Assembly (NCBI GenBank): GCA_963668695.2
Contig: CAXXLQ010000004.1
Coordinates: 3,328,001-3,392,000 of the forward strand
Direction: 5' to 3'
Source: Vicinamibacteria bacterium
GTDB lineage: Bacteria > Acidobacteriota > Vicinamibacteria > Marinacidobacterales > Marinacidobacteraceae
DNA length: 64,000 nucleotides
A program made the translations under genes and the position numbers. Of the stretch, positions 725 through 62,860 are shown piece by piece (position 1 is the first letter of the stretch; each line of letters starts with the position of its first letter). Below the pieces are notes generated by a model. That model was not told the DNA's origin. It did no database searches and saw nothing but the letters and a program-made list of their open reading frames with translations.

Positions 725-941
725 CAGCCTGTGGTGAAACCCACGCGGCGTTCGAGCGGCGATCCATCCCGCCTGAACCGCCCCCCCACCGGGAGAACTG
801 GCGCTTTGCGGCGCTCTGCGTTGCGTTTCGGTCGAAATACACTCGGTATTCCTCCCTCACGCGCCTTGTCAGCCGGGCGCCTCGCCCCCACCGGGAGAAC
901 TGGCCGCTCTCGGCGCTCACCCGGGTTCCACCACAGGCTGC
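724..941 (+). mobile_element. MITE family A, single head+body copy (218 bp)
   Basis: TIRs gcagcctgtggtgaaaccc / gggttccaccacaggctgc, TA on both sides; carries two tag copies. Confidence 0.85.
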
Positions 942-967
942 TAGGGAACGCCGGTGTTCACACCGGC

Positions 968-1792
968 TTAGCGGTCGTCCACCGGGATGACGGTCTCGCT
1001 GTCGGCATACCCGACGATTCCGGCGGCAATCACCCGCCGGAAGCCATCCTGGGAGGCGGAGTTCTCGTCATCCAGCTCCAGATAGAAGCCCTCCGGAAGG
1101 GCCGCAAGCTGCGGGAAGGAATGTCCGGGGCCGCTCCGAAGCGCGGCGCCGGGTTGCACCACCACCGCGACCGGTGGAGCGGTGACCCGGAGCCGCAGCA
1201 GCGCGCCCGACGCGGCCGCCGCCAACATCACCAGCCCGAGGCCCGCCACCACCAGGCGCCGCCGGCCGCGGCCAAGCATCAGGAGGGTCCAGAGCGCGCC
1301 CGCGAGGAGGGCGGACGCGCTGAGCACCCACGCGATGCGGTCCGGGGAGCTGCGGCGCAGCCAGGCCCCGAAGCCCTGCATCGAGCGGAGCAGCTCGAGC
1401 GAGAAGGTGTCCGAAGCTCCCGAAGCCGCGGCTTCGGTCAGCCGCCGATCGAGCAATTCATGGGCGAGCCCGAGGTTCGCCCGGGCGTCATCGTCGCCGG
1501 GGTGGAGGGCGAGCGACCGCTCCCAGTGGAGCATCGCGTAGCCGAGCCGGCCGGCCCGGTATTCGGCGTTTCCGAGGTTGTAGTGGAGCGCCGCCCGATC
1601 GACCCCCTCGTCGGCCTCTTGCAGCAGGCGGCGATACAGAACTCCTGCGGCCTCGTAGTCCCCCTCGTCATAGCTCCGGGCGGCGGCCGCCGCGTCCACC
1701 CCCGGACTCTCCTGAGCGCGGGCGATCCCCGGCTGGAAGCATCCCAGACCAACCGCCACCAGGAGCCAGCCCGGCACGAGCAGGCGCTTCAT
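968..1792 (-). CDS. batE: BatE-like TPR protein
   Basis: Signal peptide, TPR (LHYNLGNAEYRAGRLGYAMLHWERSL), TM pair, SH3b-like LRSGPG tail; last gene of the Bat operon. Confidence 0.8.
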   Translation of the reverse strand: MKRLLVPGWLLVAVGLGCFQPGIARAQESPGVDAAAAARSYDEGDYEAAGVLYRRLLQEADEGVDRAALHYNLGNAEYRAGRLGYAMLHWERSLALHPGDDDARANLGLAHELLDRRLTEAAASGASDTFSLELLRSMQGFGAWLRRSSPDRIAWVLSASALLAGALWTLLMLGRGRRRLVVAGLGLVMLAAAASGALLRLRVTAPPVAVVVQPGAALRSGPGHSFPQLAALPEGFYLELDDENSASQDGFRRVIAAGIVGYADSETVIPVDDR

Positions 1793-3714
1793 CCGGCTTC
1801 CCCGCCCCGCCCGAGCTGATCTTCGAGCTGGCGTATGAGTTCGGTTGCCTCGGTCGCATCGGAGTGCGCCGCATCGCCACCCCCGGGAGCGGCGAAGCGC
1901 GCACCCTCCGAGCGGGAGAGCAGCGCCCGGAAGCGGCGTGCCGCCTCGGGTTCCGCGCCCGCCGCCACGAGACGGCGGGCCGCCCCCTCGGGAGTAAAGC
2001 CGTGGCGGGAACCTCCGAGCCGCGCCGCCGCGTATTCGGTGAGGGCTTCGCCCACCCGGGCGGCGGCCTCGGGCCCGCTGCCGCCGACCCGCGCGAGCGC
2101 CCGCTGCGCGTTACGCGCCGCTCCCCGGCGGCGGTACTCGGCCGGATTCGCATCCCGCCAGGCGCGGCGGCGCCGGGCGGCGAACAGCCCGAGATTCCAG
2201 AGCACCGGCAGGCCGAGGCTCAGGAGGAAGAAGGTCCCGGGCCGCCAGGGGCCGGCCGGGCGGCCCGCTCCCTGCCCGACGGGCTTCAGGTAGCGGATGT
2301 CCTCCGCGAGACGCTCGACCGCAACCGGCCCGTCAACTCCGGGGGCGGTCGCGGTGGACCCCTCGATCCGGATCTGGAGGGGGTCGGACGCCAGCCGTTC
2401 GTAGGCGCCGGTCCGCGGATTGAACACGTCGAGCGTGACCGCACCGATGTTCCGCACGCCCCCCGCTTCGGGCACCAGCGGGAATTCCCAGATCTGGCGG
2501 CCGCCGAACGTAATCCCTTCCCCCTCGTCCCGGAGGCCGGTCTCCGCGGAGGTATCCGGATCGAAGAACCGGAAGGCCCTGCGGACCTCCGGACTCTCGG
2601 GGAGCGCCGGAACCCCTGCCGCCCGCAGATTGCCGCTGCCCTCGAGTTCGACCCGCAGGACCAGCGGCTCGCCGGCCACCGCCACCTGGTCGCCGAGCGG
2701 AGCGTCGTCGCGCGTGATCTCCGCGCTCAGCCGGTAGTCCCCCACGGCGCCGGTGAATCCGGGAGGCCGCCCCGCCTCGGGGAGGGGCTCCGCCCGAATC
2801 GTGACGGGGGGCGCTTCCCGCACCACCACCGCCTGCTCTGGTCCGAAGAAGGACCGCCGCCGCCGTTCGCCCTGGATCCCGATTTCGAAAAGCGGGCCGG
2901 CGAGCTGGCGTTCGCCCGCGCCGGTAGGAAAAACCGCCCGCATCAGCAGCGGGTAGGTCTCGTACTCCACCCCGTTCAGGGCGCGGCGTTCGCGGCGGGG
3001 TCCCGGGCGGCTCCGGCGCTCCCGTATTTCGTTGCCGCTCAGGCCGCGCTCCTGCCAGGGGACGTCGGGAAGTTCCACCTCCTCGGTCCAAAAACCCTCC
3101 GGCTGCGCCAGCTCGACCGGGCCCGCCGCGTACACCGGGAGCCGCGACCAGAGCCGGTAGAGCACGAGCACCTGCTCGCCCACCTGGACCTCGGCGCCCG
3201 GCGCTTCCGCCCGAATGAAGATGTCCTCCTCCCGAACCTCCGGGCCCCTCTGCTCCCGGCGCCGCCGGTTGAACGGATCCATCCGGCCGAACGGCGAAGA
3301 AAACGGCGACGAAAAGGGTGATGCAAACGGATCGGGGGAGCGGGGACGGACGCTTCCCTGTTCGACGCGCACCGGGATCGGAGAAGCGGGCGCGTAGCCG
3401 GGAACCGCAATCTCCGGAATCACCAGTTCCCCGACCGTGAGCGGCCGAAGCCGATAGACCCACTCGATCGCGCGGGTCATCTGCATGTTGACGATCTGTG
3501 TCTTCGAGATCCGCTGGCTGCTGAGCACCTCGAAGCCGGCGAGGTCGGGGATCACCGGCTCACCTCCGCGCTCCTCGGGCACGGACACCGTCAGCGCCAA
3601 CGTGTCTTCGATCCCGATGTGGTCGGCGTCCACGCTCGCCTCGGCAGCCTCCTGGCCGTGGACCGGTGCGACGAAGAAAACCGTGAACAGCGCGGCCACC
3701 AGCAGCCGTTTCAT
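1789..3714 (-). CDS. batD: BatD family protein
   Basis: ATG at 3714 overlaps batC stop; signal peptide MKRLLVAALFTVFF, GFWTEE, GFTGAVGDY, GSGNL, C-terminal TM. Confidence 0.85.
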   Translation of the reverse strand: MKRLLVAALFTVFFVAPVHGQEAAEASVDADHIGIEDTLALTVSVPEERGGEPVIPDLAGFEVLSSQRISKTQIVNMQMTRAIEWVYRLRPLTVGELVIPEIAVPGYAPASPIPVRVEQGSVRPRSPDPFASPFSSPFSSPFGRMDPFNRRRREQRGPEVREEDIFIRAEAPGAEVQVGEQVLVLYRLWSRLPVYAAGPVELAQPEGFWTEEVELPDVPWQERGLSGNEIRERRSRPGPRRERRALNGVEYETYPLLMRAVFPTGAGERQLAGPLFEIGIQGERRRRSFFGPEQAVVVREAPPVTIRAEPLPEAGRPPGFTGAVGDYRLSAEITRDDAPLGDQVAVAGEPLVLRVELEGSGNLRAAGVPALPESPEVRRAFRFFDPDTSAETGLRDEGEGITFGGRQIWEFPLVPEAGGVRNIGAVTLDVFNPRTGAYERLASDPLQIRIEGSTATAPGVDGPVAVERLAEDIRYLKPVGQGAGRPAGPWRPGTFFLLSLGLPVLWNLGLFAARRRRAWRDANPAEYRRRGAARNAQRALARVGGSGPEAAARVGEALTEYAAARLGGSRHGFTPEGAARRLVAAGAEPEAARRFRALLSRSEGARFAAPGGGDAAHSDATEATELIRQLEDQLGRGGEAG

Positions 3715-4598
3715 CAGTGGCGACCCCTCCGAAGCGCGCGAGCCCGGCGTTTTTCGAGACGGTCCTCCTGGAAGGCCCGCTCGACGTCGGCGAGCGCGGC
3801 GAGGATCCGCTCGGCCTGCTCGGGGCTGATTTCGGGAACCTCGCCGGGCAGGGAGTCCGGAGTGTCCGCGCCCGGCCCCGCATCCTGGGGCGGATTGCCG
3901 CTCGGGTCGTCGGCGGGCGGCTGATCCTGCCCTTCCCGAGGTTCTTGGGGAGGAGACTGCCGCCCCTCCCCGGAGTCCTGGTCCGGATCGCCGGAAGACG
4001 GCGAGTCCTGCGGCTGCTGTCCCCGATTCTGGTCCTGCTGATCCTGCTCCTGTTGCTCCTGGTCCTGTTGGTCCTGCTCCTGTTGCTCCTGGTTCTGCTG
4101 GTCCCCGCCCTGCCCCCCGTCCTGCTGTTCGTCCTGCTGTTCTTGGTCGTCGGCCGCCTGGAGCGCCCTCTCCAGATTCTGGCGCGCTTCGCGGTCGTCC
4201 GGATCCAGAGCGATGGCCTCCCCGTAAGCGGCCGCCGCTTCCCGAAACGCGCCGGCGCGGAAGAGGGTGTTCGCCAGGTTGTAGAAAGCGTCGCGCCGGA
4301 CCTCTCCGTCCGCGCCGCCCCCGAGCGCCGCCTGATAACCGCGCAGCGCTTCGGCGAGCGGGCCCTCTTCGCCGCCGGACGCCGGACCACCCTCCGCCTC
4401 TCCCAGGCGGTAGTGGACCCCGGCGATGTTGAGATCGTTCTCGGGGGCGTCCGGAAAGGCGCCCTCGGCCCGCGAAAAGGCCCGGAGCGCCTCCTCCAGC
4501 CGGCCCGCTTCGAAGTGTTCCGCTCCTTCCCGGGTGTTCTTTTCGCCGCCGCCGAACAACTGCATGGCCATCAGCAGCACGAACGCGGTGCGGATCAC
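3714..4598 (-). CDS. batC: BatC-like TPR protein with Q/D-rich linker
   Basis: TPR (AFYNLANTLFRAG...ARQNLERA), Gln-rich tract, EQAERILAAL tail. Confidence 0.8.
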   Translation of the reverse strand: MIRTAFVLLMAMQLFGGGEKNTREGAEHFEAGRLEEALRAFSRAEGAFPDAPENDLNIAGVHYRLGEAEGGPASGGEEGPLAEALRGYQAALGGGADGEVRRDAFYNLANTLFRAGAFREAAAAYGEAIALDPDDREARQNLERALQAADDQEQQDEQQDGGQGGDQQNQEQQEQDQQDQEQQEQDQQDQNRGQQPQDSPSSGDPDQDSGEGRQSPPQEPREGQDQPPADDPSGNPPQDAGPGADTPDSLPGEVPEISPEQAERILAALADVERAFQEDRLEKRRARALRRGRH

Positions 4599-5626
4599 GA
4601 GACCCCTCCTTGACCTGCCAGCCGACGGCGGCGCCGGCGGGACGGGGCGGCGAACGCGGCCCCGGCGATGGCACAGACCGCCAGTCCGGCCGGGATCCAG
4701 AACCGCTCACGGTAGCGCCGGGAGATCTGCGCCCCGAGTTCCCCGCCTTCGATCCCGGCGATCCGGGCCGTGAGTCCCTCGATCTCCCGGTCGTCGGGGG
4801 AGATCTCGAAGAAAACTCCCTCCGTGAGCGCGGCCAGTTCGGAGAGCGCCGCCCGGTCCAACCGGCTCACGATGGGAGAGCCGGCGGCGTCGCGCATCAG
4901 GGTCGGGCCCGACTCGGAGGCCGCCGGAATGGTGGCGCCGCCGGGCGTCCCCACTCCGACGGAAAGCACCGCGATGTCGTGCTCGTTCGCGATCCGGGCC
5001 ACCTCGGAGATCTCGGTGACCCGCAGGTCGTCCTGCTGCCCGTCGGTGAGCAGCACCACCACCCGGTGCCGGCTTTCCTGCCGCTCGAAGGCCCGCGCCG
5101 CCTCCTCGATCATCGCCGCCAGGTTCGTTCCGGGGCTTTCCACCGCGCCGGTGGCGATCCCGGAAAGCAGGGTCCGGACCGCGCCGAGGTCATGGGTGAG
5201 CGGGCACTGGGTAAACGCCGTCCCGGAAAACGCCACGATTCCCACCCGGTTCCCGACCATCCGGTCGAGCAGCTCCCCCGCGATGTAGCGGGCGCGCTCC
5301 ATACGCGAAGGCGCCACGTCGCGGGCGTCCATGCTGAAGGAAGTGTCCATCGCCAGCACGACGTCCACCCCCACGAGCGTCACTTCCTGCTCCTGCCTCC
5401 CCCACTGGGGACGGGCGGCAGCCGTCGCCAGCAGCAAGACCGCGCCCAGCAACAGGAAATCGCGGAACCGGCGCCGCGTCCGGCTGTCCCCCTCGATGAG
5501 CGCCGGAGTCCGGGTTCCGAAACGGTCCAGAACCGCCCGGCCGCGGCGTGCGGCCCAGAAGACGAGCGCCGCCCCCGCCGGGAAGAGGAGCAGCAGAAAC
5601 AGCGCCGCTGGCGCCCCGAAACGCAT
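4595..5626 (-). CDS. batB: BatB VWA-domain protein
   Basis: ARPQWG, MIDAS DTSFSM, DVAPSRM, CPLTHD, LLTDG, VGVGTPGG. Confidence 0.85.
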   Translation of the reverse strand: MRFGAPAALFLLLLFPAGAALVFWAARRGRAVLDRFGTRTPALIEGDSRTRRRFRDFLLLGAVLLLATAAARPQWGRQEQEVTLVGVDVVLAMDTSFSMDARDVAPSRMERARYIAGELLDRMVGNRVGIVAFSGTAFTQCPLTHDLGAVRTLLSGIATGAVESPGTNLAAMIEEAARAFERQESRHRVVVLLTDGQQDDLRVTEISEVARIANEHDIAVLSVGVGTPGGATIPAASESGPTLMRDAAGSPIVSRLDRAALSELAALTEGVFFEISPDDREIEGLTARIAGIEGGELGAQISRRYRERFWIPAGLAVCAIAGAAFAAPSRRRRRRLAGQGGVS

Positions 5627-5683
5627 CTCAGCGAACCCCCTCCAGCAGGTGTGTTCCAGGGAGCGGGGTGCGTCCGGACACAG

Positions 5684-6661
5684 TCATGGCGCGGTCCGCA
5701 ACACGGTGGCGCCGAGCGCGAGCCCGGAAAACAGGAGCATCGCCGCCCAACCGGCGAGGAGGGGTCCGTCGTCCGACCAGCTCGTCCAGGTCGGCGCCTG
5801 GATTTCGGTCCGTTCGAGCGCGTCGATCTCTTCGTAGACCGCCCTGAGGCCCTCGCTGTCGCGGGCCCGGAAATACCGGCCGCCGGTCGCGTCCGCGACC
5901 TTCGTGAGCATCTCTTCGTCGATCCCCGGCGCCCGCCGGACATCGAGCGACCCGTCGGGACGCCGCGTGACCATCTGCCCGCCCTGCTGGCTCCCGGCGC
6001 CCACCGTATAGACCCGGATCCCCCGGGTCTTGGCCAGCCCGGCGGCGGTGAGCGGATGGATCTCTCCGGCGTTCGAGACGCCGTCGGTGAGCAGGACGAT
6101 CACCCGGCTCTCGGCCTCCGAATCCACCAGCCGGTTCACCGAGGCGGCGATGGCGTTGCCGATCGCCGTGCCGTCGGGAATGTCCCCGATGTTCACCTCC
6201 CGCAGCCTCTCCGTCAGGACGCCGTGATCCAGGGTCAGCGGGCTCAGCGTCACCGCATTCCGCGCGAACGCCACGGCCCCCAGGCGGTCGTCCGTCCTCC
6301 GGTCGATGAAATCCTCGAGCACCTCCTTGGCCGCGGTAAGGCGGTTGGCGGGGGCGAAGTCCTCGGCCCGCATGCTCGAGGAAATGTCCAGCGCGAGCAC
6401 GATGTCCACTCCGAGGCTGGTGCCCGTCTCCTCGGTGATCCCGGTCTGGGGGCGGGCGAGCGCGACCGCGGCGAGAGCCAGCGAGGCGAGCACGAGCGCC
6501 CCGGGCAGGAACGCCAGTCGCGAACGAAGCGACCGGGGCAGTTCCCGGAGCCCGGCGGCTTCCGGGAACCGGAGCGCCGGAGCGGCGAACCGCCGGGCAT
6601 GCACGACGAAGAGCGGAATCAGGAGCAGAAGCAGGAGCGCCCCCGGCCACAGTAGCCGCAT
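5684..6661 (-). CDS. batA: BatA VWA-domain protein
   Basis: LARPQ, LDISSSMRAEDF, GTAIGNAI, LLTDGVSNAG, ATGGRYFRA, IDALE. Confidence 0.88.
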   Translation of the reverse strand: MRLLWPGALLLLLLIPLFVVHARRFAAPALRFPEAAGLRELPRSLRSRLAFLPGALVLASLALAAVALARPQTGITEETGTSLGVDIVLALDISSSMRAEDFAPANRLTAAKEVLEDFIDRRTDDRLGAVAFARNAVTLSPLTLDHGVLTERLREVNIGDIPDGTAIGNAIAASVNRLVDSEAESRVIVLLTDGVSNAGEIHPLTAAGLAKTRGIRVYTVGAGSQQGGQMVTRRPDGSLDVRRAPGIDEEMLTKVADATGGRYFRARDSEGLRAVYEEIDALERTEIQAPTWTSWSDDGPLLAGWAAMLLFSGLALGATVLRTAP

Positions 6662-9878: not shown

Positions 9879-10105
9879 GGGAACGCCGGGATTCAGGAGC
9901 GCCGGCCTTCAGACCGGCATCGCGGCCAAGGCCGCGAAACTCCCATCGCCAACCGCAAAGAAGCGCGGGGACGGCTGGGAGCGCCGGCCTTCAGACCGGC
10001 ATCGCGGCCACAGGCCGCGAAACTCCCATCGCCAACCGCAAAGAAGCGCGCGACAGCGGGCCCCCACCGGGAGAACTGGCCACCGGCCTCCGGCCGGCAT
10101 CGCGC
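9879..10105. repeat. REP-like family B cluster (ggagcgccggccttcagaccggc..., about 82-bp unit x2 plus partial)
   Basis: Direct duplication 9896-9968 / 9978-10050; homologous to 40933-41062 and 57838-57990; third palindrome carries a tag. Confidence 0.7.
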
Positions 10106-10109
10106 GAGA

Positions 10110-10280
10110 GCGCGAAACCAGCGCCGATGACGCTCCGCCATGCCAGCGTGAGGCCCGCACCACCTTCCCATCCCGGAGGGCGCGACCGCTCGCTCTCCCG
10201 CTACCCGGGCCGTGCCTTTTTCATGACGGGCGAGGGGGTGCAGGAGGATCCGATCATGAGGGTTTCTCCCGGTGGAGCCC
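10110..10280. repeat. Dispersed element D (TCATGA-containing), copy 1
   Basis: Homologous to 35521-35636. Confidence 0.65.
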
Positions 10281-12886: not shown

Positions 12887-13234
12887 AGTGCCTTGTTCCG
12901 AACGACCCTGGACGAGAACTCATAGGCCCGATTCCCTTGCGGCCTCAGAAACCCGCATGATCAGGTCGGCCCGTTCACCCCGCCCGCATGAAGAAGCGCT
13001 AGAGGTCGGCGTTGCCGGGCCTGCGCGCCACCCTGCATTCAGAGGTACGCGCCGAGAAGGGAACCATTCCAACGGTTGGGGTCTGCGCCGCCGCGGCCCT
13101 CGAGGCCGCTGTGCCGGGCCCCACCGGGAGAACTGCCCAGAGGTCGGCGTTCCCTTGCCTGCGCGCGATCCGCTCGGTCGGGGGCTCGGCGCAACTGCTT
13201 TTTCAGGGCAACTGCCCGGCGGTCCCTGCCGCTC

Positions 13235-15294: not shown

Positions 15295-15825
15295 GGAGCC
15301 TGTGGATAAAGTGGCGTGAGCGCCGAGAGCGGTGAGGCGCCCGGCTGACAAGGCGCGCGAGGGAGGAATACCGCGTGTATTTCGACCGAAGCGCAACGAT
15401 GAGCGACGCGAAGCGGCGCGGTGAACAGCCGGTGGTGGAACCCACGTGAGCGCCGAGGTTGGCAAGTTCTCCCGGTGGGGGCGAGGCGCCCGGCTGACAA
15501 GGCACGTGAGGGAGGAATACCGCGTGTATTTCGACCGAAGCGCAACGATGAGCGACGCGAAGCGGCACGGTGAACAGCCGGTGGTGGAACCCACGTGAGC
15601 GCCGAGGTTGGCCAGTTCTCCCGGTGGGGGCGAGGCGCCCGGCTGACAAGGCGCGTGAGGGAGGAATACCGGGTGTATTCCGACCGAAACGCAACGATGA
15701 GCGGCGCGAAGCGACGCGGTCAGCCGGGATGGATCGCCGGCCGAACGCCGCATGGGTTTCATCACCGGTTGTTTGGCCGGGATGGATCGCCGCTCGAACG
15801 CCGCGTGACTTTGTCCACAGGCTGC
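15295..15825 (-). mobile_element. MITE family A compound array (2 heads + 3 bodies)
   Basis: TA-flanked outer TIRs, internal TIR variant acagccggtggtggaaccc. Confidence 0.85.
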
Positions 15826-23602: not shown

Positions 23603-23855
23603 ACAGTCTGTAGTGGAACCCGCGTGAGCGCCGAGGCCGGGGAGGCCCAGTTCTCCCGGTGGGGCCAGTCCTCCCGGTGGGGGCCCGGCTGACAAGGCGC
23701 GTGAGGGAGGAGCCCCCACCGGGAGAACTGGCCCGGGCGTATTTCGACCGAAGCGCAACGATGAGCGGCGCGAAGCGACGCGGTTCAGCCGGGATGGATC
23801 GCCGGCTGAGCCCCCACCGGGAGAACTGGGCCGCGTGGGTTTCACCACAGACTGT
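23603..23855 (-). mobile_element. MITE family A single copy with four tags
   Basis: TIRs acagtctg / cagactgt carry the same base change on both ends. Confidence 0.85.
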
Positions 23856-26239: not shown

Positions 26240-26456
26240 GCAGCCTGTGGACAAAGTCACGCGGCCCAGTTCTCCCGGTGGGGGCTCGACCGGCGATGCA
26301 TCCCGGCTGAACCGCGCCACTTCGTGGCGCTCTGCGTTGCGCTTCGGTCGAAATACGCTCGGGCCAGTTCTCCCGGTGGGGGCTCCTCCCCCGCGCGCCT
26401 TGTCAGCCACGCGCCTCGCCGCTCTCGGCGCTCACGCCACTTTATCCACAGGCTGC
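26240..26456 (+). mobile_element. MITE family A single copy
   Basis: TIRs gcagcctgtggacaaagt / actttatccacaggctgc. Confidence 0.85.
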
Positions 26457-26944: not shown

Positions 26945-27853
26945 GCGGCGCCGAGCGCCGCGGGGGAGGGGCGTGGGGAGGGATTCCCCTCCCCACGAAA
27001 GACGATGGCGCGGATCGCGAAGCGATGCGCGCCATCACCCCGTGGGGTTAACAGCCTGTGGTGAAACCCACGCGGCGTTCGAGCGGCGATCCATCCCGCC
27101 CAAACAACCGGTAGTGAAACCCACGCGGCGTTCGGCCGGCGATCCATCCCGGCTGAACCGCGTCGCTACGCGCCGCTCATCGTTGCGTTTCGGTCGGAAT
27201 ACACCCGGGCCAGTTCTCCCGGTGGGGGCTCCTCCCTCACGCGCCTTGTCAGCCGGGCGCCTCGCCCCCACCGGGAGAACTGGCCAGCCTCGGCGCTCAC
27301 CCGGGTTCCACCAAAGGCTGTTAGCGCCCCGCATCCGAAGAATGCAGGGAGCAGGTGTGCTTTTTCGCCGGGTGGCGCGATGCCGGGTGCTTGCCCCTCG
27401 GGGAGATTCCCTCCCGGCGCGGACTCAATGCAGAGATCCGGCGGCGCGGAGCGCCGCCGGGGAGGGGTGTGGGGAGGGGTTTCCCCTCCCCACGTAAGAC
27501 GATGGCGCGGATCGCGAAGCGATGCGCGCCATCACCCCGTGGGCTGTTAGCGCCCCGCATCCGAAGAATGCAGGGAGCAGGTGTGCTTTTTCGCCGGGTG
27601 GCGCGATGCCGGGTGCTTGCCCCTCGGGGAGATTCCCTCCCGGCGCGGACTCAATGCAGAGATCTGGCGGCGCGGAGCGCCGCCGGGGAGGGGCGTGGGG
27701 AGGGATTCCCCTCCCCACGGGAAAGGGTGGGGAGAATCGCGAAGCGATTCTCGACGCCGCCCCGAGGGGTTAGCGCCCCGCATGCGAAGAATGCAGGGAG
27801 CAGATGTGCTTTTTCGCCGGGTGGCGCGATGCGGGGTGCTTGCCCCACGGGAG
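26945..27853. repeat. Repeat family C tandem array (~223-226 bp period) with GGGGAGGG..CCCTCCCC hairpin
   Basis: tagcgccccgcat at 27322, 27548 and 27771; further copy at 51248-51362. Confidence 0.85.
27051..27321 (+). mobile_element. MITE family A (2 heads + 1 body) inserted in repeat C
   Basis: TA duplication; matching empty site at about 27766-27779. Confidence 0.88.
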
Positions 27854-28380: not shown

Positions 28381-29238
28381 GCAGCCTGTGAACAAAGTGG
28401 CGCGGCGTTCCGGCGGCGATGCATCCCGGCCAAACAGCCGGTGGTGGAACCCAAGCGGCGTTCGGCCGGCGATCCATCCCGGCTGAACCGCCAGTAATGA
28501 AACCCGCGCGGCGTTCGGCCGGCGATCCATCCCGGCTGAACCGCCAGTAATGAAACCCGCGCGGCCCAGTTCTCCCGGTGGGGGCTCGGCCGGCGATCCA
28601 TCCCGGCTGAACCGCGTCGCTGCGCGCCGCTCATCGTTGCGTTTCGGTCGCAACACACCCGGGCCAGTTCTCCCGGTGGGGGCTCCTCCTTCACGCGCCT
28701 TGTCAGCCGGGCGCCTCGCCCCCACCGGGAGAACTGGCCAGCCTCGGCGCTCACCCGGGGTCCACCACCGGCTGTTCACCGCGTCGCTTCGCGCCGCTCA
28801 TCGTTGCGTTTCGGTCGCAACACACCCGGGCCAGTTCTCCCGGTGGGGGCTCCTCCCTCACGCGCCTTGTCAGCCGGGCGCCTCGCCCCCACCGGGAGAA
28901 CTGGCCGGCCTCGGCGCTCACCCGGGTCCACCACCGGCTGTTCACCGCGTCGCTTCGCGCCGCTCATCGTTGCGCTTCGGTCGCAATACACCCGGGCCAG
29001 TTCTCCCGGTGGGGGCTCCTCCCTCACGCGCCTTGTCAGCCGGACGCCTCGCCCCCACCGGGAGAACCGGCCGGCCTCGGCGCTCACCCGGGTTCCACCA
29101 CCGGCCGTTCACCGCGCCGTTTCACGTCGCTCATCGTTGCGCTTCGGTCGAAATACACTTGGTACGCCTCCCTCGCGCGCCTTGTCAGCCGGGCGCCTCA
29201 CCGCTGTCGGCGCTCACACCACCTTGTCCGCAGGCTAC
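28381..29238 (+). mobile_element. MITE family A compound array (4 heads + 4 bodies)
   Basis: Four ~52-bp heads (the last carries a tag), then four bodies of ~167-bp period; outer TIRs. Confidence 0.85.
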
Positions 29239-30113: not shown

Positions 30114-30312
30114 GCACCCTGTGGACAAAGTCGCGCAGCGTTCCCGAGCCAGAAGGGATGGGGGTCGGGTAGTTCCGCCCCCCGTCCCTTCCGCTCCGGG
30201 GTCTACGCGGTGCTTGCGCCCCGCTCGGAAAACAAGCGGCGATGCATCCCGGCTGGCCCCCACCGGGAGAACTGGCGCTTTCGGCGCTCACGCCACCTTG
30301 CTCACAGGCTGC
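30114..30312 (+). mobile_element. Degenerate MITE family A copy with a ~90-bp foreign hairpin insert
   Basis: TIRs gcaccctgtggacaaagt / accttgctcacaggctgc; body mostly deleted at a tag. Confidence 0.7.
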
Positions 30313-35111: not shown

Positions 35112-35226
35112 CAGCCTGTGGTGGAACCCGGGTGAGCGCCGAGAGCGGCCAGTTCTCCCGGTGGGGGGGCGGTTCAGGCGGGATGGATCGCCGCTCAAAC
35201 GCCGCCTGGGTTTCACCACAGGCTGT
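35111..35226 (-). mobile_element. MITE family A internal-deletion copy (116 bp)
   Basis: Matches the 724-941 copy minus the 102 bp between its two tags; TA-flanked. Confidence 0.85.
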
Positions 35227-35520
35227 TAACCCTAGGTCGAGCGTTCCGGAAGGGGGGCATGCCTCCGGGATGGCGGTACGAGAGGGCCAACGCTATTCCC
35301 CTCTCCACCCCAATCACCCTTAGCGACGCGTCTCCCAACGCGCGCTTTCCAAACCCCCTCACGGCGTAGATCCAACACACATCGCCACTTATCACCAGAG
35401 AGCGCCGGCCTTCGGCCCGCACGGCGGCCCGTAGGCAAGGGACCGCCGACCTCCCGGCAGTCGCTGTGAAAGTGCAGATCTGCGGGAACCCAGACCACCC
35501 GGATGGCGCGCGACAGCGGA

Positions 35521-35636
35521 GCGCGAAACGCGCGCCGATGACGTTGCGCCATTCCAAGGTGAGGGCCGTGCCTTTTTCATGACAGGCGAGAGTGTGCCGG
35601 AGGACCCGATCATGAAGGTGTCTCCCGGTGGGGCCC
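35521..35636. repeat. Dispersed element D, copy 2
   Basis: Homologous to 10110-10280. Confidence 0.65.
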
Positions 35637-38921: not shown

Positions 38922-39036
38922 TCCGTTAGAAGTCGTTTCTCCGGAACGGGCCGCAACCGAGTCTATCGGTATGCTGACCGCCTCGGTCCCGCGCCTCCAT
39001 CATGGGCCCTGGCGGGGACCGACAAGGAGAACTCGC

Positions 39037-40929
39037 ATGCGCTGGAACCGGAATTCAACAGCCTGTGACAAAACCCACGCGGCCCAGTTCTCCCGGTGGG
39101 GGCTCGACGGGCGATCCATCCCGGCCAGACAGCCGGTAGTGAAACCCACGCGGCCCAGTTCTCCCGGTGGGGGCTCGGCCGGCGATCCATCCCGGCTGAA
39201 CCGCGTCGCTTCGCGCCGCTCATCGTTGCGTTTCGGTCGGAATACACCCGGGCCAGTTCTCCCGGTGGGGGCTCCTCCCTCACGCGCCTTGCCAGCCGGG
39301 CCCCCACCGGGAGGACTGGCCCCACCGGGAGAACTGGGCCTCGCCCCCACCGGGAGACTGGCCAGCCTCGGCGCTCACGTAGGTTCCACCACCGGCTGTT
39401 CACCGCCCCGCTTCGCGGCGCTCTGCGTTGCGTTTCGGTCGAAATACACCCGGCCCAGTTCTCCCGGTGGGGGCTCCTCCCTCACGCGCCTTGTCAGCCG
39501 GGCCCCCACCGGGAGGACTGGCCCCACCGGGAGAACTGGGCCTCGCCCGTCTCGGCGCTCACGTGGGTTTCACCACAGGCTATTAGTCATCCCCGTCCTC
39601 CTGACCGCTCTCATCCTGCCGGTGATCGCGGCCGGGCAGCCAGCCCCCACCGTTCTTCCCATGCGGGACCGGGCGGCGCTCATCGACCGCTGGCTCGAGG
39701 TGCGGTTCGAGACCGTGCTGCCGGAAATCATGCGGCGCGACGGCGTGGACATGTGGATCGTTGCGGCGAGGGAATACAACGAGGATCCGGTCATCCGGAC
39801 GATGCTCCCCTACACCTGGCTCGCGGCCCGGCGCCGCACCGTGCTCCTGTTCTTCGACCGCGGTCCGGAGGAGGGCGTCGAGCGGCTCGCGGTGGCCCGG
39901 TACGACATCGGAGGCATCCCGGGCGCCTGGGATCCCGAAACCGAACCCGATCAGTGGGCCCGGGTCGCCGAACTGGTCCGTGAGCGGAATCCCAACGTGA
40001 TTGCAGTGAACCGTTCGTCGGATTTCGGGCTGGCTGACGGGATCACCGCCACCGAATACGAGGCGCTCGGGGAGGCGCTCGGGCCTGAATTGTCACAGCG
40101 GGTAACCAGCGCCGAGACGCTGGCCATCGCCTGGCTCGAAACCCGGACTCCGGAGGAGATGGCGGTCTATCCCGCCGTCGTCCGCCTCGCCCGCTCCATC
40201 CTCTCCGAGGGCCTGTCGGAAAAGGCGATCCAGCCGGGCGTCACCACCACCCAGGATCTCTCCTGGTGGTACCGCGAGCGGATCCGCGAACTCAAACTCC
40301 AGACCTGGTTCCAGCCGGGCGTTTCGGTGCAGCGTCGCGAGGGAGCGATGTTCGGTGGCGACGCGGGAGACCAGGGCGATTTCTCTTCACGCCCCCCTCC
40401 GGACACCATCATGCCCGGCGACCTGCTGCACGTGGACTTCGGGATTACCTATCTCCGGCTCAACACGGATACCCAGATGCACGCCTACGTGCTGCGCCAC
40501 GGCGAAACGGCGGCCCCGGCGGGACTCAGTGAAGCGCTTTCCACCGGAAACCGGCTCCAGGACATCCTCACCGACGAATTCGTCACCGGCCGCACAGGAA
40601 ACGAAATCCTCGCGGCGGCGCTCGCCCAGGCGAAGAGCGAGGGCATCACTGCCTCGATCTACACCCACCCGATCGGCTTCCACGGCCACGCGGCCGGGCC
40701 CACGATCGGGCTGTGGGATCGCCAGGAAGGTGTGCCCGGCAAGGGTGACTATCCACTCTTTCCGATGACCGCGCACTCCATCGAGCTGAACGCCCGGGTC
40801 GCGGTGCCCGAGTGGGACGGCCAGGAGGTCCGGATCGCGCTGGAGGAGGACGCCATCTTCGACGGCGAATCCACGACGTATATCGATCCCCGGATGGAAC
40901 GCCTGCTGCTGATCCCCCGCCCGCGCTAG
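39037..40929 (+). CDS. M24 Xaa-Pro aminopeptidase-like protein; signal peptide interrupted in frame by a MITE
   Basis: AAGGAG RBS plus ATG 39037; REYNEDP, GDLLHVDFG, HPIGFHGHAAGP, IELN, LEED; alternative start 39661. Confidence 0.85.
   Translation: MRWNRNSTACDKTHAAQFSRWGLDGRSIPARQPVVKPTRPSSPGGGSAGDPSRLNRVASRRSSLRFGRNTPGPVLPVGAPPSRALPAGPPPGGLAPPGELGLAPTGRLASLGAHVGSTTGCSPPRFAALCVAFRSKYTRPSSPGGGSSLTRLVSRAPTGRTGPTGRTGPRPSRRSRGFHHRLLVIPVLLTALILPVIAAGQPAPTVLPMRDRAALIDRWLEVRFETVLPEIMRRDGVDMWIVAAREYNEDPVIRTMLPYTWLAARRRTVLLFFDRGPEEGVERLAVARYDIGGIPGAWDPETEPDQWARVAELVRERNPNVIAVNRSSDFGLADGITATEYEALGEALGPELSQRVTSAETLAIAWLETRTPEEMAVYPAVVRLARSILSEGLSEKAIQPGVTTTQDLSWWYRERIRELKLQTWFQPGVSVQRREGAMFGGDAGDQGDFSSRPPPDTIMPGDLLHVDFGITYLRLNTDTQMHAYVLRHGETAAPAGLSEALSTGNRLQDILTDEFVTGRTGNEILAAALAQAKSEGITASIYTHPIGFHGHAAGPTIGLWDRQEGVPGKGDYPLFPMTAHSIELNARVAVPEWDGQEVRIALEEDAIFDGESTTYIDPRMERLLLIPRPR
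39058..39583 (+). mobile_element. MITE family A nested pair (inner copy 39129-39399)
   Basis: Outer TIRs acagcctgtg / cacaggctat; inner TIRs acagccgg / ccggctgt. Confidence 0.85.
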
Positions 40930-40932: not shown

Positions 40933-41062
40933 GGAGCGCCGGGCAGTCCTCCCGGTGGGGCCGTTCACACCGGCATCGCGGCCAAAGGCCGCGAAACTCC
41001 CATCTCCAACCGAGCAGAAGCGCGCGGACGGCCTGGCGCGCCGGTACTCCGATCGGCATCGC
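40933..41062. repeat. REP-like family B copy with tag insertion
   Basis: Homologous to 9896-10050. Confidence 0.65.
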
Positions 41063-43101: not shown

Positions 43102-44025
43102 ACAGCCTGTAGTGAAACCCACGCGGCGTTCGAGCGGCGATCCATCCCGACTAAACGACCGGTGATGAAACCCACGCGGCGTTCGGCCGGCGATCCATCC
43201 CGGCCAAACAACCGGTGATGAAACCCACGCGGCGTTCGGCCGGCGATCCATCCCGGCCAAACAACCGGTGATGAAACCCACGCGGCGTTCGGCCGGCGAT
43301 CCATCCCGGCCAAACAACCGGTGATGAAACCCACGCGGCGTTCGGCCGGCGATCCATCCCGGCCAAACAACCGGTGATGAAACCCACGCGGCGTTCGGCC
43401 GGCGATCCATCCCGGCTGACCGCGTCGCTTCGCGCCGCTCATCGTTGCGTTTCAGTCGGAATACACCCGGGCCAGTTCTCCCGGTGGGGGCTCCTCCCTC
43501 ACGCGCCTTGTCAGCCGGGCCCCCACCGGGAGGACTGGCCCCACCGGGAGAACTGGGCCTCGCCCCCACCGGGAGGACTGGCCGGCCTCGGCGCTCACCC
43601 GGGTTCCACCACCGGCTGTTCACCGCGTCGCTTCGCGCCGCTCATCGTTGCGTTTCGGTCGGAATACACCCGGGCCAGTTCTCCCGGTGGGGGCTCCTCC
43701 CTCACGCGCCTTGTCAGCCGGGCCCCCACCGGGAGGACTGGCCCCACCGGGAGAACTGGGCCTCGCCCCCACCGGGAGGACTGGCCGGCCTCGGCGCTCA
43801 CCCGGGTTCCACCACCGGCTGTTCACCGCGTCGCTTCGCGCCGCTCATCGTTGCGTTTCGGTCGGAATACACCCGGGCCAGTTCTCCCGGTGGGGGCTCC
43901 TCCCTCACGCGCCTTGTCAGCCGGGCCCCCACCGGGAGGACTGGCCCCACCGGGAGAACTGGGCCTCGCCCCCACCGGGAGGACTGGCCAGCCTCGGCGC
44001 TCACCCGGGTTCCACCACCGGCTGT
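43102..44025 (+). mobile_element. MITE family A compound array (6x53-bp heads + 3x203-bp bodies)
   Basis: Heads at 43105, 43158, 43211, 43264, 43317, 43370; bodies at 43421, 43624, 43827 with four tags each. Confidence 0.9.
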
Positions 44026-56030: not shown

Positions 56031-56051
56031 GGTCGCGGGGGAGCGGAAGCG

Positions 56052-57832: not shown

Positions 57833-57837
57833 AGCCC

Positions 57838-57990
57838 AGGGAACGCCGGTGCCGGCTTCCGACTGGCAGTGTGGCGCGAAGGCTGGGAACGCCGATCTTC
57901 AGACCGGCACCCGCGGCGCGCAGCGCCGCGGAATCCCGTAGAGCGACCCATCCGATGGCGCGAGAGCGGGAACGCCGACCTCCGGCCCAC
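57838..57990. repeat. REP-like family B cluster (gggaacgccg...)
   Basis: Three gggaacgccg-headed imperfect palindromes; relatives at 944, 13003-13160, 35440, 48640 and 62712. Confidence 0.55.
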
Positions 57991-58092
57991 ACCACCCCGC
58001 AAAGCGGAGCGAAACGCCCAGTGCGAGTAAGGCAGAGTGCGTAGCTCGTTCTATCCCGTTGGCCAACTCCTGATCAATCCAATCAACACCCC

Positions 58093-59013
58093 ATGCTTGA
58101 AATCAGAAACCTCGTCAAGGTGTACCCGGGGCCGGTCGCGGCGCTCCAGGGCGTCTCGCTCAAAGCCTCCCGGGGCATGCTGGGCCTCCTCGGGCCGAAC
58201 GGCGCCGGGAAGACCACCCTCCTCCGTATCGTTGCAGGCCTCCTGGAACCGACCTCCGGAACAGTCCTCCTTGATGGCGAAGACGTAACCACCGATCCCC
58301 GGCGGATCCACCGGCAGCTCGGTTACCTGCCGCAAGACTTCGGCTTCTATCCTCACCTGACCGGGGCGGCGATGCTCCGCTTCCTGCTGGTACTCAAGGG
58401 CGTGAAGGCGCCGCAGGGCGTAACGCGGCTTGCCGCGGAACTTCTCGAGCGCGTGAACCTGCAAGACGCCGCGAAGCGCAAGGTCGGCACCTATTCGGGC
58501 GGCATGAGGCAACGGCTGGGTATCGCGCAAGCGCTGGCGGGGAACCCGCGGATCATCGTCGTTGACGAGCCTACGGCCGGGCTCGATCCCGAGGAGCGGA
58601 TGCGGTTCTACCGGCTGCTCGCCGAAGTGGCCGAAGACCGGCTGGTGCTGCTTTCCACGCATATCGTGGAGGACATCTCCGTGTTGTGTCCGAGAGTGGC
58701 CATCCTGCACAACGGACAAGCGGTGGCCGACACCACCCCGGGCGAAGCGCGCGCCCGTCTTCGGGGTGCGATCTTCGAGGGGGCAGTCGCAAAGGCCGGC
58801 ATGGATGAAATAGCGCGGCGCTTCGAGGTCACCCAGGCGGTCCTGATCGAGGGGCGCAACCGGGTACGCGTCCATGTTCCGAACGGACCGCCGCCCGAAG
58901 GTTTCGAACCGGTCGCTCCGAGCCTCGAAGACGCCTACCTCCTCCTCACGCGGGACAGTGGATCCGGAAACGGCGTGCAGCCGCCGGAGGCTGAAGCGCG
59001 CGCGGGCTCGTGA
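58093..59013 (+). CDS. ABC-2 type ATP-binding protein
   Basis: GPNGAGKTT, YSGGMRQR, VDEPTAGLDP, STH. Confidence 0.93.
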   Translation: MLEIRNLVKVYPGPVAALQGVSLKASRGMLGLLGPNGAGKTTLLRIVAGLLEPTSGTVLLDGEDVTTDPRRIHRQLGYLPQDFGFYPHLTGAAMLRFLLVLKGVKAPQGVTRLAAELLERVNLQDAAKRKVGTYSGGMRQRLGIAQALAGNPRIIVVDEPTAGLDPEERMRFYRLLAEVAEDRLVLLSTHIVEDISVLCPRVAILHNGQAVADTTPGEARARLRGAIFEGAVAKAGMDEIARRFEVTQAVLIEGRNRVRVHVPNGPPPEGFEPVAPSLEDAYLLLTRDSGSGNGVQPPEAEARAGS

Positions 59014-62000
59014 CCTCTTTCGCCAGGTGGGCCGCCGTCGCCCGCCGGGAACTGTCCTCGGCGCTGCGGCGGCCCTCCTACTGGTTTCTGTTCGGGGTTC
59101 TGGTACTGGCGGCGTGGGGGTTCTCCGAGGGGAACGTGACCATCTCCAGCGGCGACGCAACCGCGGGAGGAAACCGGTCGCACGTCACCTCCGTCTTCGC
59201 CCAGAGCATGTTCCAGTCGATCTCGATCTCGGGCATGGGCGCCTGGTTCCTGGCCATCGGGGCGGGGCTCGTGCTGGTCCGGGACGCGGAACATCGCGTG
59301 GGCGAGGTGCTCCACGCGACCCGGCTGACTCCCCGGGAGTACGTGTGGGGCAGCTTCGCCGGAGCGGTTACGGCCTTCCTGGTCATCTGGGGCCTGTACC
59401 TGGGTGCCTCCGTGGGCTTCAACCATGTCCTGGCGGCCGGAGCGGAATCCCGCCAGATCGGGCCGTTCGTTCTCGGGAACTACCTCGCTCCCACCCTGCT
59501 CCTCGGCCTTCCCCAGATCGTGTTCTTCGCGGGCGTACCACTGTTCCTCGGCGCCTGGACCCGCCGCCCGATCGTGGTCTTCGCGTTTCCGATCGCGGTG
59601 CTGCTCGTCGCCCTGGGATTTTTGGTCTCCTGGTCGCCGAGCTGGCTCGACCCGGCGATCAACCGCGCGCTGATGCTTGCGGATCCCTCGGGTTTCCGGT
59701 GGCTGAACGAGACCTTCCTGAAGATTGATCGGGGGGTTGACTTCTACAACACGGCGCCGCTGCCTCCGGACACCGGATTCCTCCTCAGCCGCATCGCTCT
59801 GGCCGCCGTCGGACTGCTGGCGGTGGAAGCCGCGGTGCGGAACACCGCCCGCCGACTCCTTCGGGGAGACATGGATTCGGTGGTGGTCGGCTTTCGCCGG
59901 AGCGGCAAGAAGAAGACGCCCGCGCCGGACCTCACGAGCGCACCGGCCCCCGCCGGGAGGACGCTGAGCGAACTCGGCATGCGGACCAGCCCCCCGGGGT
60001 TCTTCACGGCGGTTCACGCGATCGGCCGGGCCGAGGTCCGCGAGTTGCTCGTTCGGCCGGGTGTCTATCTTTTCGTCCCCCTGATCCTCTGGCAGTCGGT
60101 CAGTCAGAGTCTCTTCGCGCTCGGGCCTTTCGATTCGCCGCTGCTGGTGACTTCGGGGGCGATGGCGGCGCGGCAGTTCAACACGCTGAGCCTGCTCGTG
60201 TGCATTCTGCTGCTCTTCTACACGGTGGAGTCGCTGGTGAAGGAGCGAGCCCAGCGATTCGCCGAGATCTACCGGGCGACACCCGTCGGGACCGGGGCGA
60301 TGCTCCTCGGCAAGACCGCGGGCAGCGTCGTGTTGGCGGCGCTGGTCCTGAGCACCGCCCTGATCGCGTCCGCGACGATCATCGCGGTGCGGCAGCTTCT
60401 CGGCGATCCGGTCGGCTTCACGCTCTGGCCGTTCATTGCAGCCTGGGGCGGCGTGATGGCCCCGACGTTCATTTTCTGGACGACGTTCATCACCGCCGCC
60501 TTCGCCCTCTTCCGCAACCGCTACACGGTGTACGGACTCGGGCTGGCGATCGCGATCTACACCGTCTACCGGATGAACGCGGGCGAGGCGCTCTCGTGGG
60601 TCACCAACTGGATAGCCTGGAACTCGATCCAGTGGAGCGATATGGGCGCTTTTTCACTCCACGGCCGCGCCCTGTTGCTGAACCGCCTCCTGTACCTGAG
60701 TCTCGTCCCCCTGCTCCTGGTCCTGGCGATGCGGTGGTTCGGGCGGCAGGAGTTCGACGCCACTCGGATCCTGCACCGCCTGCGGCCGAAGGCCCTGTTG
60801 GGGAGCGGGGTGCGGCTCCTTCCTTTCGCCGTGCCGCCGGTTTTCCTCGCGTCCCTGCTGTTCTTTGGCGGACGAGCCGGCTACCAGGGACCGGGCGTTG
60901 AGGAAGCCGTCAAGAACTACTGGCGGCGCAACGTGGCCACCTGGACCGACTTCAGAATGCCGTCGGTCTCCCACGTGGACCTGGACGTCGAACTCGAGCC
61001 CCGGGCCCATTCCGCTTCGGTGTCCGGCGCCTACACGTTCTTCAACCACCGCGACTATGTGGTTCGCCAGCTTCCCATCACCGCCGGCCTCTGGGACCCC
61101 ATCGAGTGGACCCTCGACGGGGAGCCCTACGAACCGGAGGACCGCTCGGGTCTCTTTGTCTTCACCCCCGAAGAACCGCTGGCGCCCGGGGAGTCGCTCA
61201 CGGTCGGTTTCCGCTACGACCTGCAGCACCCCCGCGGCTTGAGCACGAGGGTCGGCGGCCGCGGCCAGTTCATCCTCAATTCGGGGGTCGTCCTCACCGC
61301 CTTCGCGCCCACCTTCGCTCCGGTTCCCGGGTACCTGCCGGGAATCGGCGTGGACGAAGAGAACCGGTACGACCAGCGGGAGTACCCCGACGATTTCTTC
61401 GAGGGGGAGACCGAACCGGCCTTCGGCTGGGGCGGAACGCCCCTCACCACGAGAATCCGAATCACCACGCCGGAGGAATACACCGCGAACAGCGTGGGTC
61501 GGCTGGTGAGCGACGAGGTCCGGGAGGGGCGGCGCACTGTGGTGTGGGAGTCCGACCACCCGGTCCGGCTCTTCAACATCGTCGCCGGCCGCTACGCGGT
61601 CAAGGAGGGGCGGGGCACCGCCATCTACTACCACCCGGAGCACGACTACAACGTCGAGGAGATGTCCGCCGCACTCGACGCGGCGAGGGAGCACTACTCG
61701 GAGTGGTTCCACCCCTTCCCGTGGGAACGCCTGAAGCTCTCCGAGTTCCCGGCGTTCGCCGGCTACGCGCAGGGATTCCCCACGAACATCACCTTCAGCG
61801 AGGGAATCGGCTTCCTGACGAAGAGCGATCCCCGCTCGCACGCCGCCTTCGCCATCGTGGCGCACGAAGCGGCGCACCAGTGGTGGGGGAACATCCTGAC
61901 TCCCGGACGCGGACCGGGCGGCAACATGCTGTCCGAGGGGATGTCCCACTACGCGACCATCCTGCTACACGAGCAGGTCTATGGAGACCGCCACCGGATC

Positions 62001-62648
62001 GAGTTCGTGAAACGGATCGAAGATCAATACGGCGACGCGCGGTTCGTGGATTCCGAACGGCCCCTCGTCAAGACGGACGGCTCACGATCGGGCGACGCAG
62101 CGGTCATCTACCAAAAGGGCGGGTGGGTGATGTGGATGCTCCAGCGGGAGATGGGCCGCGAAAACCTCCTGGCGGGGCTCCGCGCCTTCATCGAGGCGTA
62201 CCGCTCCAGTCCGGACTTTCCGGTCATCCAGGACATGCTGAGGGTGCTCCGGGACTACGCCCCGGACCCCGATGTCTTCGACTCGTTCACCCGGCAGTGG
62301 TTCCACGACGTGGTCGTCCCGGAGTACCGGCTCTCCCAGGTGACGAAAGAGAGGGATGGCGACGGTTGGGTCGTGCGCGGCTCGCTGGAGAACGCGGGGA
62401 CGGGACGGGTGACGGTGGAGGTGGCCGCGACGGCTGGCGAGCGTTGGTCCGACGAAGGCGACGACGCCAACCGGACGGTCGTCCGGAGCGATTACCGTGA
62501 CTCCAGGGCGGCAATCGAACTGGGCGCTGGGGAATCAGCCGACTTTCAGATCGCCACCGACTTCGATCCGGCACGCATCGTCGTCGACCCGGACGCGCTC
62601 GTACTCCAGTTGCGCCGGGAGGCCGCGGTCTTCGAGTTCCCTCAATAA
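59010..62648 (+). CDS. ABC-2 permease fused to an M1 aminopeptidase domain
   Basis: Two multi-TM blocks, then YAQGFP, HEAAHQWWG...SEG, IYQKG. Confidence 0.88.
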   Translation: MTSFARWAAVARRELSSALRRPSYWFLFGVLVLAAWGFSEGNVTISSGDATAGGNRSHVTSVFAQSMFQSISISGMGAWFLAIGAGLVLVRDAEHRVGEVLHATRLTPREYVWGSFAGAVTAFLVIWGLYLGASVGFNHVLAAGAESRQIGPFVLGNYLAPTLLLGLPQIVFFAGVPLFLGAWTRRPIVVFAFPIAVLLVALGFLVSWSPSWLDPAINRALMLADPSGFRWLNETFLKIDRGVDFYNTAPLPPDTGFLLSRIALAAVGLLAVEAAVRNTARRLLRGDMDSVVVGFRRSGKKKTPAPDLTSAPAPAGRTLSELGMRTSPPGFFTAVHAIGRAEVRELLVRPGVYLFVPLILWQSVSQSLFALGPFDSPLLVTSGAMAARQFNTLSLLVCILLLFYTVESLVKERAQRFAEIYRATPVGTGAMLLGKTAGSVVLAALVLSTALIASATIIAVRQLLGDPVGFTLWPFIAAWGGVMAPTFIFWTTFITAAFALFRNRYTVYGLGLAIAIYTVYRMNAGEALSWVTNWIAWNSIQWSDMGAFSLHGRALLLNRLLYLSLVPLLLVLAMRWFGRQEFDATRILHRLRPKALLGSGVRLLPFAVPPVFLASLLFFGGRAGYQGPGVEEAVKNYWRRNVATWTDFRMPSVSHVDLDVELEPRAHSASVSGAYTFFNHRDYVVRQLPITAGLWDPIEWTLDGEPYEPEDRSGLFVFTPEEPLAPGESLTVGFRYDLQHPRGLSTRVGGRGQFILNSGVVLTAFAPTFAPVPGYLPGIGVDEENRYDQREYPDDFFEGETEPAFGWGGTPLTTRIRITTPEEYTANSVGRLVSDEVREGRRTVVWESDHPVRLFNIVAGRYAVKEGRGTAIYYHPEHDYNVEEMSAALDAAREHYSEWFHPFPWERLKLSEFPAFAGYAQGFPTNITFSEGIGFLTKSDPRSHAAFAIVAHEAAHQWWGNILTPGRGPGGNMLSEGMSHYATILLHEQVYGDRHRIEFVKRIEDQYGDARFVDSERPLVKTDGSRSGDAAVIYQKGGWVMWMLQREMGRENLLAGLRAFIEAYRSSPDFPVIQDMLRVLRDYAPDPDVFDSFTRQWFHDVVVPEYRLSQVTKERDGDGWVVRGSLENAGTGRVTVEVAATAGERWSDEGDDANRTVVRSDYRDSRAAIELGAGESADFQIATDFDPARIVVDPDALVLQLRREAAVFEFPQ

Positions 62649-62860
62649 CGGGCGCGCGTGGCGCCGTCCCCCAACCAGGACCGCCATTCACCCAAATCGC
62701 GCCGCTGGGCTGGGAACGCCGGCCAGTTCTCCCGGTGGGGGCTTCACACCGTTCCGCGGCGCGAGCGCCGCAAAACGGTGTCGAGCTACCCGTCCCCGAT
62801 GGCCCGCGAGCGCCGGAATGCCGGTTCGAGCCGGCGTCCCCTGCGCCGCAGCCCGCGACG

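Follow-up and report, generated by a model that had tools for sequence, protein, structure and literature searches.

The window, that is, the whole 64,000-nt stretch of DNA analysed here, contains 32 exact copies of the 17-mer found at positions 785–801 and 45 copies within two mismatches, 24 on the plus strand and 21 on the minus strand, which confirms the count of about 45 copies in both orientations made in the first-pass annotation. The copies of this word, referred to below as the tag, are listed with the associated features in Table 1. Every host of the tag that was seen is mobile DNA. The assignment of the open reading frame at 38971–40929 to the M24 peptidases holds, with PF00557 matched at residues 408–573; the frame stays open through the MITE copies, and its tags lie upstream of the PF00557 domain.

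Table 1. Positions of tags, slots, and associated elements in the window
Position	Strand	Feature
785–801	+	17-mer reference copy in MITE slot E; the unit has 3 nt more on the left and 1 nt more on the right
887–903	+	Tag in MITE slot C, net +19 relative to the empty site near 26414
10063–10079	+	Tag in REP-family repeat inside an AA-core IS110 MITE remnant
10080–10279	-	IS110-type MITE of which only the left end was found, abutting a left tag half at the AA core
12949–13216	+	AA-core IS110-type MITE with both ends; right tag half present, left half missing; holds the tag at 13120
13120–13136	+	Tag allele with paired -2/17 change, REP slot G
15463–15628	-	Two tags, MITE slot C
15666–15668	+	Empty slot A; three bases replaced by the unit in filled copies
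23647–23829	.	A single MITE with four tags, including a tandem double, in slots A and B
26266–26380	-	Two tags, slots B and A
27210–27283	.	Two tags, slots A and C
28566–29070	.	Seven tags, nested MITE array
30259–30275	+	Tag, slot J
35149–35165	-	Chimeric tag: slot E left flank, slot C right flank
35457–35635	-	Tag in REP slot G split into two halves by a degenerate IS110-type MITE of 179 nt; both core dinucleotides substituted
38971–40929	+	M24 peptidase open reading frame; MITE copies with 8 tags (39084–39539) in the 5' part
40943–40959	-	Tag, REP slot H
43472–43987	.	Twelve tags, triple MITE array
62723–62739	-	Tag, REP slot H

The Written Unit and Its Insertion Slots

Comparison of filled and empty sites supports the earlier proposal that the tag was inserted secondarily, at many sites unrelated to each other. 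Grouping the main-contig copies (1,582) by their flanks gave 135 clusters. Of these, 38 hold at least three copies (1,470 copies), and an empty counterpart was found for 37 of the 38. After the clusters were merged by hand, about 15 slots were obtained, located in a MITE of ~182 nt and in a REP family; the insertion at multiple sites described earlier thus stands, with about 15 slots in place of "six or more" sites. Three of the filled and empty examples cited earlier were read directly: the tag at 887 and its empty equivalent near 26414, the unoccupied slot at 15666–15668, and an empty REP at 944.

The written unit is best read as 21 nt, consisting of three bases, the 17-mer, and one further base, a size that bears out the view that the tag is too short for a normal transposon. 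It replaces three host bases (net +18) in slots A, B, D, E, H, I, and J and two host bases (net +19) in slots C, F, F', G, and N. No target duplication was found in the 38 context clusters of at least three copies, and of the 0–3 nt formerly described as lost or duplicated at the junctions, a loss of 2–3 nt was retained and the duplication was not. The tag has no terminal inverted repeats of at least 10 nt, only three to four end bases pairing (the ends self-pair over 4 bases), and its predicted fold is no stabler than those of shuffled sequences (z -0.5 to 0). With a target loss of 2–3 nt and no duplication, the tag itself is not a classical IS or MITE. The tandem double tags reported near 39301 and 43520 are present (39303/39321 and 43522/43540) and obey the same replacement rule, in that the bases lost to the second unit are those at the beginning of the first.

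The same unit occurs in a gene. In genome G023, two copies of a transposase gene, labelled IS481-like from sequence motifs rather than from a family scan, hold the unit in frame, and the same gene is empty in one further G023 copy and in three G018 copies. The empty site in this gene resembles MITE slot D over ~13 of 17 bases. Inside one MITE, slot occupancy is positively correlated (odds ratio 6.6 for slots A and B), which shows some share of inheritance or long conversion. Tag positions -2 and 17 change jointly in 32 of the 42 position-17 variants, which may represent one ancestral haplotype. In genus g4 (L332 of G023; L341 and L357–L359 of G018), the last 13 tag bases form tandem runs of up to six copies, probably generated by slippage between two occurrences of a four-base word, one inside the tag and one in the flank.

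Distribution of the Tag among Genomes

In the 4.1-Mb assembly (G000, referred to as this genome), the 17-mer occurs in 1,296 exact copies and in 1,648 copies within two mismatches, and the ~1,600 tags are grouped in 586 loci. The genome-wide count with strand bias proposed in the first-pass annotation gave near-equal strands on the main contig (780/802), with at most a weak bias when tested against local GC skew (odds ratio 1.23, p 0.04). Part-words of 9–10 nt are scarce where no full tag is present (three such words gave 16, 60, and 161 matches).

The tag is present in 27 of 61 genomes. All 15 other genomes of the same genus carry it at 11–802 copies each, and genera g2, g4, and g5 carry it at 7–262 copies; genera g3, g6, and g7, together with 33 genomes outside the family, gave 0–2 matches, and the tag pattern read backwards, which served as a control, gave 0–3 matches per genome over the 61 genomes. 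Counted within the family, 23 of the 27 other genomes contain the tag. The word is near-perfectly invariant over four related genera, while copy number among relatives spans 7 to 1,601; the single tag of G020 occupies a MITE slot. Contigs matching the tag are recorded as Ca. Marinacidobacterium and other Acidobacteriota MAGs.

The assembly is 91.7% complete with 9.3% contamination, and it mixes strains. A library adapter or a lack of read support had been raised as an objection; contigs from all four sequencing runs examined (two studies), one of which may be the source sample of the assembly, cross from the unique flank into the tag at 13120 with zero differences. The observation of the tag is genuine, reflecting neither an adapter nor an assembly artefact.

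Strain Differences and Linkage

Contigs C1 and C3 and the last 170 kb of C4 represent duplicated strain haplotypes inside the assembly; they duplicate parts of C4 at 97.5–99.7% identity, with many short tandem-repeat length differences. Tag number differs between these co-assembled strains at 10 of 80 orthologous repeat loci, comprising three loci with clean gain or loss of the unit (four tags), one with a tandem duplication, and six with a larger rearrangement or poor alignment. The clean differences consist of exactly the unit, and the near flanks are unchanged; the four events include two neighbours that possibly form one event, and gain and loss are unpolarised. Contigs of the sequencing runs break at repeats, and strain differences are therefore not visible there.

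For the four clean events, filled copies drawn at random from the slot concerned agree with the event over 20 nt on each side in 3/305, 3/305, 13/55, and 0/138 cases and over 10 nt on each side in 40%, 40%, 56%, and 0% of cases. The rarity of the 20-nt match indicates a short copied tract, although the 10-nt matches are compatible with ordinary short gene conversion. Most filled copies lie on flank haplotypes that empty copies also have, in slots A (249/306), B (266/324), C (128/180), and D (73/81), and tag-to-SNP linkage (0.01–0.33) is not clearly below SNP-to-SNP linkage (median 0.16–0.20).

Alleles of the tag recur across slots. The position-12 allele occurs in 10 clusters and the paired -2/17 allele in four, and a double allele occupies several slots of two genomes of genus g4. 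In addition, a G-to-A flank change just outside the unit is enriched in the filled copies of slots C, F, and G; for slot F, this flank base is found in 23/29 filled copies compared with at most 3/148. Recurrence of the alleles and of the flank base across slots argues for copying from other tags rather than from one free oligonucleotide, and the template is inferred to be another tag plus a few flank bases.

IS110 Elements Located within the Tag

A search with half-tags uncovered split tags, in which elements of an AA-core clade begin with the left 14 bases of the tag and end with its right four. The AA of tag positions 12–13 is present at both junctions, and taking the element out restores the tag target. 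The AA-core MITEs are ~150–430 nt long. This genome contains 24 split tags, of which 11 have a credible right end, with one in the window (35457–35635). The total of 24 was obtained from 28 rows after removal of a chance match in coding sequence, a whole tag of variant sequence, a copy duplicated between haplotypes, and a degenerate copy. In G006, 78 left-junction and 79 right-end matches were found against 53 whole tags, and both element ends lie within 138–427 nt of each other in 23 of the 40 loci retrieved. Whole and split tags use the same slots and the same junctions, and split tags in this genome favour REP slots (14/21 assignable versus 168/1,470 whole tags, p 5e-9).

The parent of the split-tag MITEs is an IS110 element. 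The intact copy L294 (G001, 419 residues) and L293 (G004, one stop) are situated inside a tag, whereas L292 and L314 (G008) are placed at the right junction of a MITE and contain a right-end/core/left-end junction in tandem. The recombinase matches PF01548 and PF02371 and aligns with IS621 at D11, E60, D102, D105, and S241, corresponding to the DEDD residues and the catalytic serine as numbered in PMC11208158. In the left non-coding end, a predicted 6-base left-target guide equals the left target plus the core in five of five element types with different targets, and the elements aimed at the tag also hold its right end in reverse-complement form. Only in these elements is the right-target guide clear; for L315 it is unclear and for L295 it is offset. 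The putative donor guide tracks each element's own right end. These guides were judged by inspection of alignments, and minimum-energy folds of the non-coding ends lacked clean guide loops. No AA-core transposase was found in this genome, and the four pattern matches in five genomes of g2, g4, and g5 included no AA-core split tag. In metagenome contigs, the long-form left end had no match, and a protein search gave two overlapping loci in which the right end is followed by the right part of the tag.

Elements of a second clade, assigned by PF02371/PF01548 matches only, use a CC core and lie between the first bases of the tag and its remainder at 10 of the 16 loci examined, distributed over four genomes (one in G000, three in G004, five in G009, and one in G014); the other six loci belong to a family without the anchor. 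The G000 element is a deleted remnant at C4 ~310,850–312,000. Both junctions are visible at nine of the ten loci, where taking the element out likewise restores the target. The predicted 3' guide is complementary, in reverse, to the 6 nt that follow the junction on its right and is exact at 9/10. The 5' guide varies with the slot, and the guides of REP-aimed relatives fit their REP sites. Two IS110 clades carry predicted bridge-RNA guides that are aimed at the tag and covary with the target. The host flanks left and right of split tags frequently belong to two different slots, which points to recombination from one tag to another. Separately, an intact IS110 element lies in the REP family in this genome (L230, C4:482,300–484,000), and its guides fit that REP site.

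Search for a Writer

The search for a writer covered five enzyme families. No reverse transcriptase (PF00078) was found in this genome or in 24 of the 28 family genomes, and two loci inspected from the other four are ordinary group II introns; two adjacent group II intron reverse transcriptase genes (L127/L131, G002:C14) are apparently nested introns. RAYT (PF01797) had no match in this genome, G004, G018, or G019, and tblastn of RAYT into this genome matched repeat-coded parts only. RAYT is present in 15 of the 28 family genomes and does not track tag number: of the six most tag-rich undoubted genomes, G001 and G008 contain it, and G000, G004, G018, and G019 do not. The REP family that hosts the tag adjoins RAYT genes in relatives, and the tag was found beside one of 12 RAYT loci. 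In G009, a RAYT gene (L126) is flanked by inverted arrays of ~121-nt units, each with the tag-hosting REP. The earlier suggestion that a HUH/RAYT enzyme or a reverse transcriptase writes a fixed oligonucleotide, with a source copy next to such a gene, thus finds no support so far in this genome, of which the assembly is 91.7% complete, and the recurrence of alleles and of the flank base across slots speaks against it. The supposition that the gene responsible lies outside the window is supported.

Cas1 was rejected as a writer, being an ordinary type I-E gene that does not track the tag. A type I-E-like CRISPR locus with an array lies at C4:3,282,600–3,285,900 of this genome (L384), where Cas1 scores only 26 bits against PF01867. 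Ku is present in this genome, and nothing connects it to the tag. Neither bacterial Rfam model of SRP RNA matched this genome among the candidates scored (150/490 and 136/222), no tag was found among the tRNAs and tmRNA listed, and a phage source was rejected after zero exact matches in viral contigs. No master copy of the tag was found; the 38 low-repeat contexts listed are mostly degenerate repeats. Mirror copying between hairpin arms, considered on one MITE fold, was also rejected, since it explains the slot pairs D/I and F/F' and not P/B. A transposase-like gene in G001 (L128:1-1300), the element end of which resembles the end of the host MITE, is a possible lead to the mover of the MITE.

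Discussion

The closest parallel to the tag is provided by SDR1–8 of Nostoc and its relatives, described by Elhai et al. in 2008, which are reportedly ~21–27 nt long, dispersed, self-nesting, and confined to one clade, with an unknown mechanism. The tag appears to work like an SDR: it is a 21-nt unit with 1,648 dispersed copies, it inserts precisely at fixed places inside other repeats and itself, and it is present or absent at homologous sites between close strains (three of 80 loci) and in transposase genes. The two differ in that the tag occurs in Acidobacteriota rather than in heterocystous cyanobacteria and consists of one near-invariant word with ~1,600 copies, a defined replacement of 2–3 bases, and a predicted role as an IS110 bridge-RNA target. 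The tag is accordingly filed by likeness of behaviour and not as a member. Insertion of an SDR within another repeat is documented for SDR5 in HIP1 (PMC4390886).

The IS110 elements share several features with IS621 and with ISPpu9 and its derivative MITEPpu9: their 2-nt core is duplicated, their guides lie in the left non-coding end, and they have given rise to non-autonomous forms (for MITEPpu9, see PMC12288879). The guide layout of the CC-core clade is as described for IS621 in PMC11208160; in contrast, the AA-core clade places the reverse-complement guide for the right target first in the RNA. In contrast to both IS621 and ISPpu9, the target here is a 21-nt insert moving among repeats rather than a REP, and two cores share one word. 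REP/REPIN sequences and RAYT (PMC3116915) resemble the present system in that the families hosting the tag include a REP that adjoins RAYT genes in relatives, but the tag is not palindromic and has only the RAYT association noted above. DNA uptake sequences spread through coding DNA by point mutation, and their part-words are abundant. The tag differs from them in that its part-words are rare and its copies arise by insertion. In the literature, as judged from search listings of incomplete coverage, nothing was found on the tag or on an IS110 element aimed at an SDR-like insert.

The most likely mechanism, given roughly an even chance of being right, is very-short-tract copying from existing tags, amplified by the host repeats and followed by use of the tag as an IS110 landing pad. 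An existing tag could serve as the template when mobile DNA that forms hairpins is nicked or broken and then repaired. A few bases of flank homology may suffice, and the copied tract would comprise the unit plus 0–3 flank bases. An unrelated site resembling an existing slot could then seed a new slot, and amplification of the MITE and REP hosts would multiply the tag. Once abundant, the tag could become a landing pad for IS110 elements with bridge RNAs re-aimed at it, much as REPs are the targets of IS621 and ISPpu9, and IS110 insertions and rearrangements would yield split tags and tags with mismatched flanks. Copying from any tag copy does not by itself explain an identical word in four genera with diverging hosts.

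That invariance would fit templated writing, in which a 21-base word is stamped into nicked mobile DNA to build a genome-wide set of identical recombination sites for RNA-guided elements, either by a dedicated enzyme with a master template or by an IS110 bridge recombinase that installs its own target. Taken as a whole, templated writing is a minority view. Its first form is slightly less probable: a dedicated enzyme, so far unrecognised, would use a master template to write the unit, by HUH strand transfer or by RNA-templated synthesis at a nick. The near-perfect invariance over four genera, the small target deletion without duplication, and the insertion in a gene outside hairpin repeats would fit such an enzyme, and a few template alleles could explain the variants, including the double allele in several slots of the two g4 genomes. 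However, among the five enzyme families searched, PF00078 and PF01797 had no match in this genome and Cas1 is ordinary; no master copy was found (the one tag of G020 sits in a MITE slot), and flank bases travel along with the tag.

It is improbable that the tag is a selected protein-binding or uptake-type signal that spreads by gene conversion biased to the filled allele, with new slots as rare accidents. Invariance, occurrence in both orientations with at most weak strand bias, and ~1,600 copies in 586 loci would suit a signal, whereas the rarity of part-words outside full tags, a copy number that varies from 7 to 1,601 among relatives, and the restriction of all seen hosts to mobile DNA, with no binding protein identified, do not.

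Still less weight is given to installation of tags by IS110, in which a long element bounded on the outside by the two tag halves would enter a slot and leave a tag footprint on excision at the 2-nt core. Split and whole tags do share slots and junctions, and the excess of left junctions over whole tags in G006 and the REP-slot preference of split tags could be read in this way, but host amplification timing could also explain the latter two. On the simplest reading, the tag preceded the IS110 elements, which are its tenants rather than its writers, because the predicted donor guides fit the inner element ends and not the tag halves, close homologues keep these ends while their targets are unrelated and their guides are changed to match, the core at which the tag is cut differs between the two clades, and the five genomes of g2, g4, and g5 lack AA-core split tags despite 7–262 tags each. 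Furthermore, strains differ in tags in this genome despite its lack of an AA-core transposase, and PMC11208160 describes IS110 excision as scarless. Identity to the end of a known IS, raised earlier as an objection, proved half right: tag halves do flank IS110 elements, but as a target site and not as element ends. Finally, an assembly or library artefact has next to no probability, since the tag recurs in contigs of the four runs from two studies and in 23 of 27 other family genomes, even though the assembly mixes strains, is contaminated, and contains duplicated regions.

The IS110 elements show that two clades have naturally redirected their predicted bridge RNAs to a single word, and the link between the tag and IS110 is new. 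The movement of ~20-base repeats has been an open question since the cyanobacterial SDRs, and the defined edit rule, the alleles, the strain polymorphism, and the in-frame coding insertion make it testable. The intact 419-residue recombinase with its predicted tag-aimed bridge RNA offers a direct handle on filled versus empty sites, and ~1,600 identical recombination targets in one bacterium could drive repeat shuffling.
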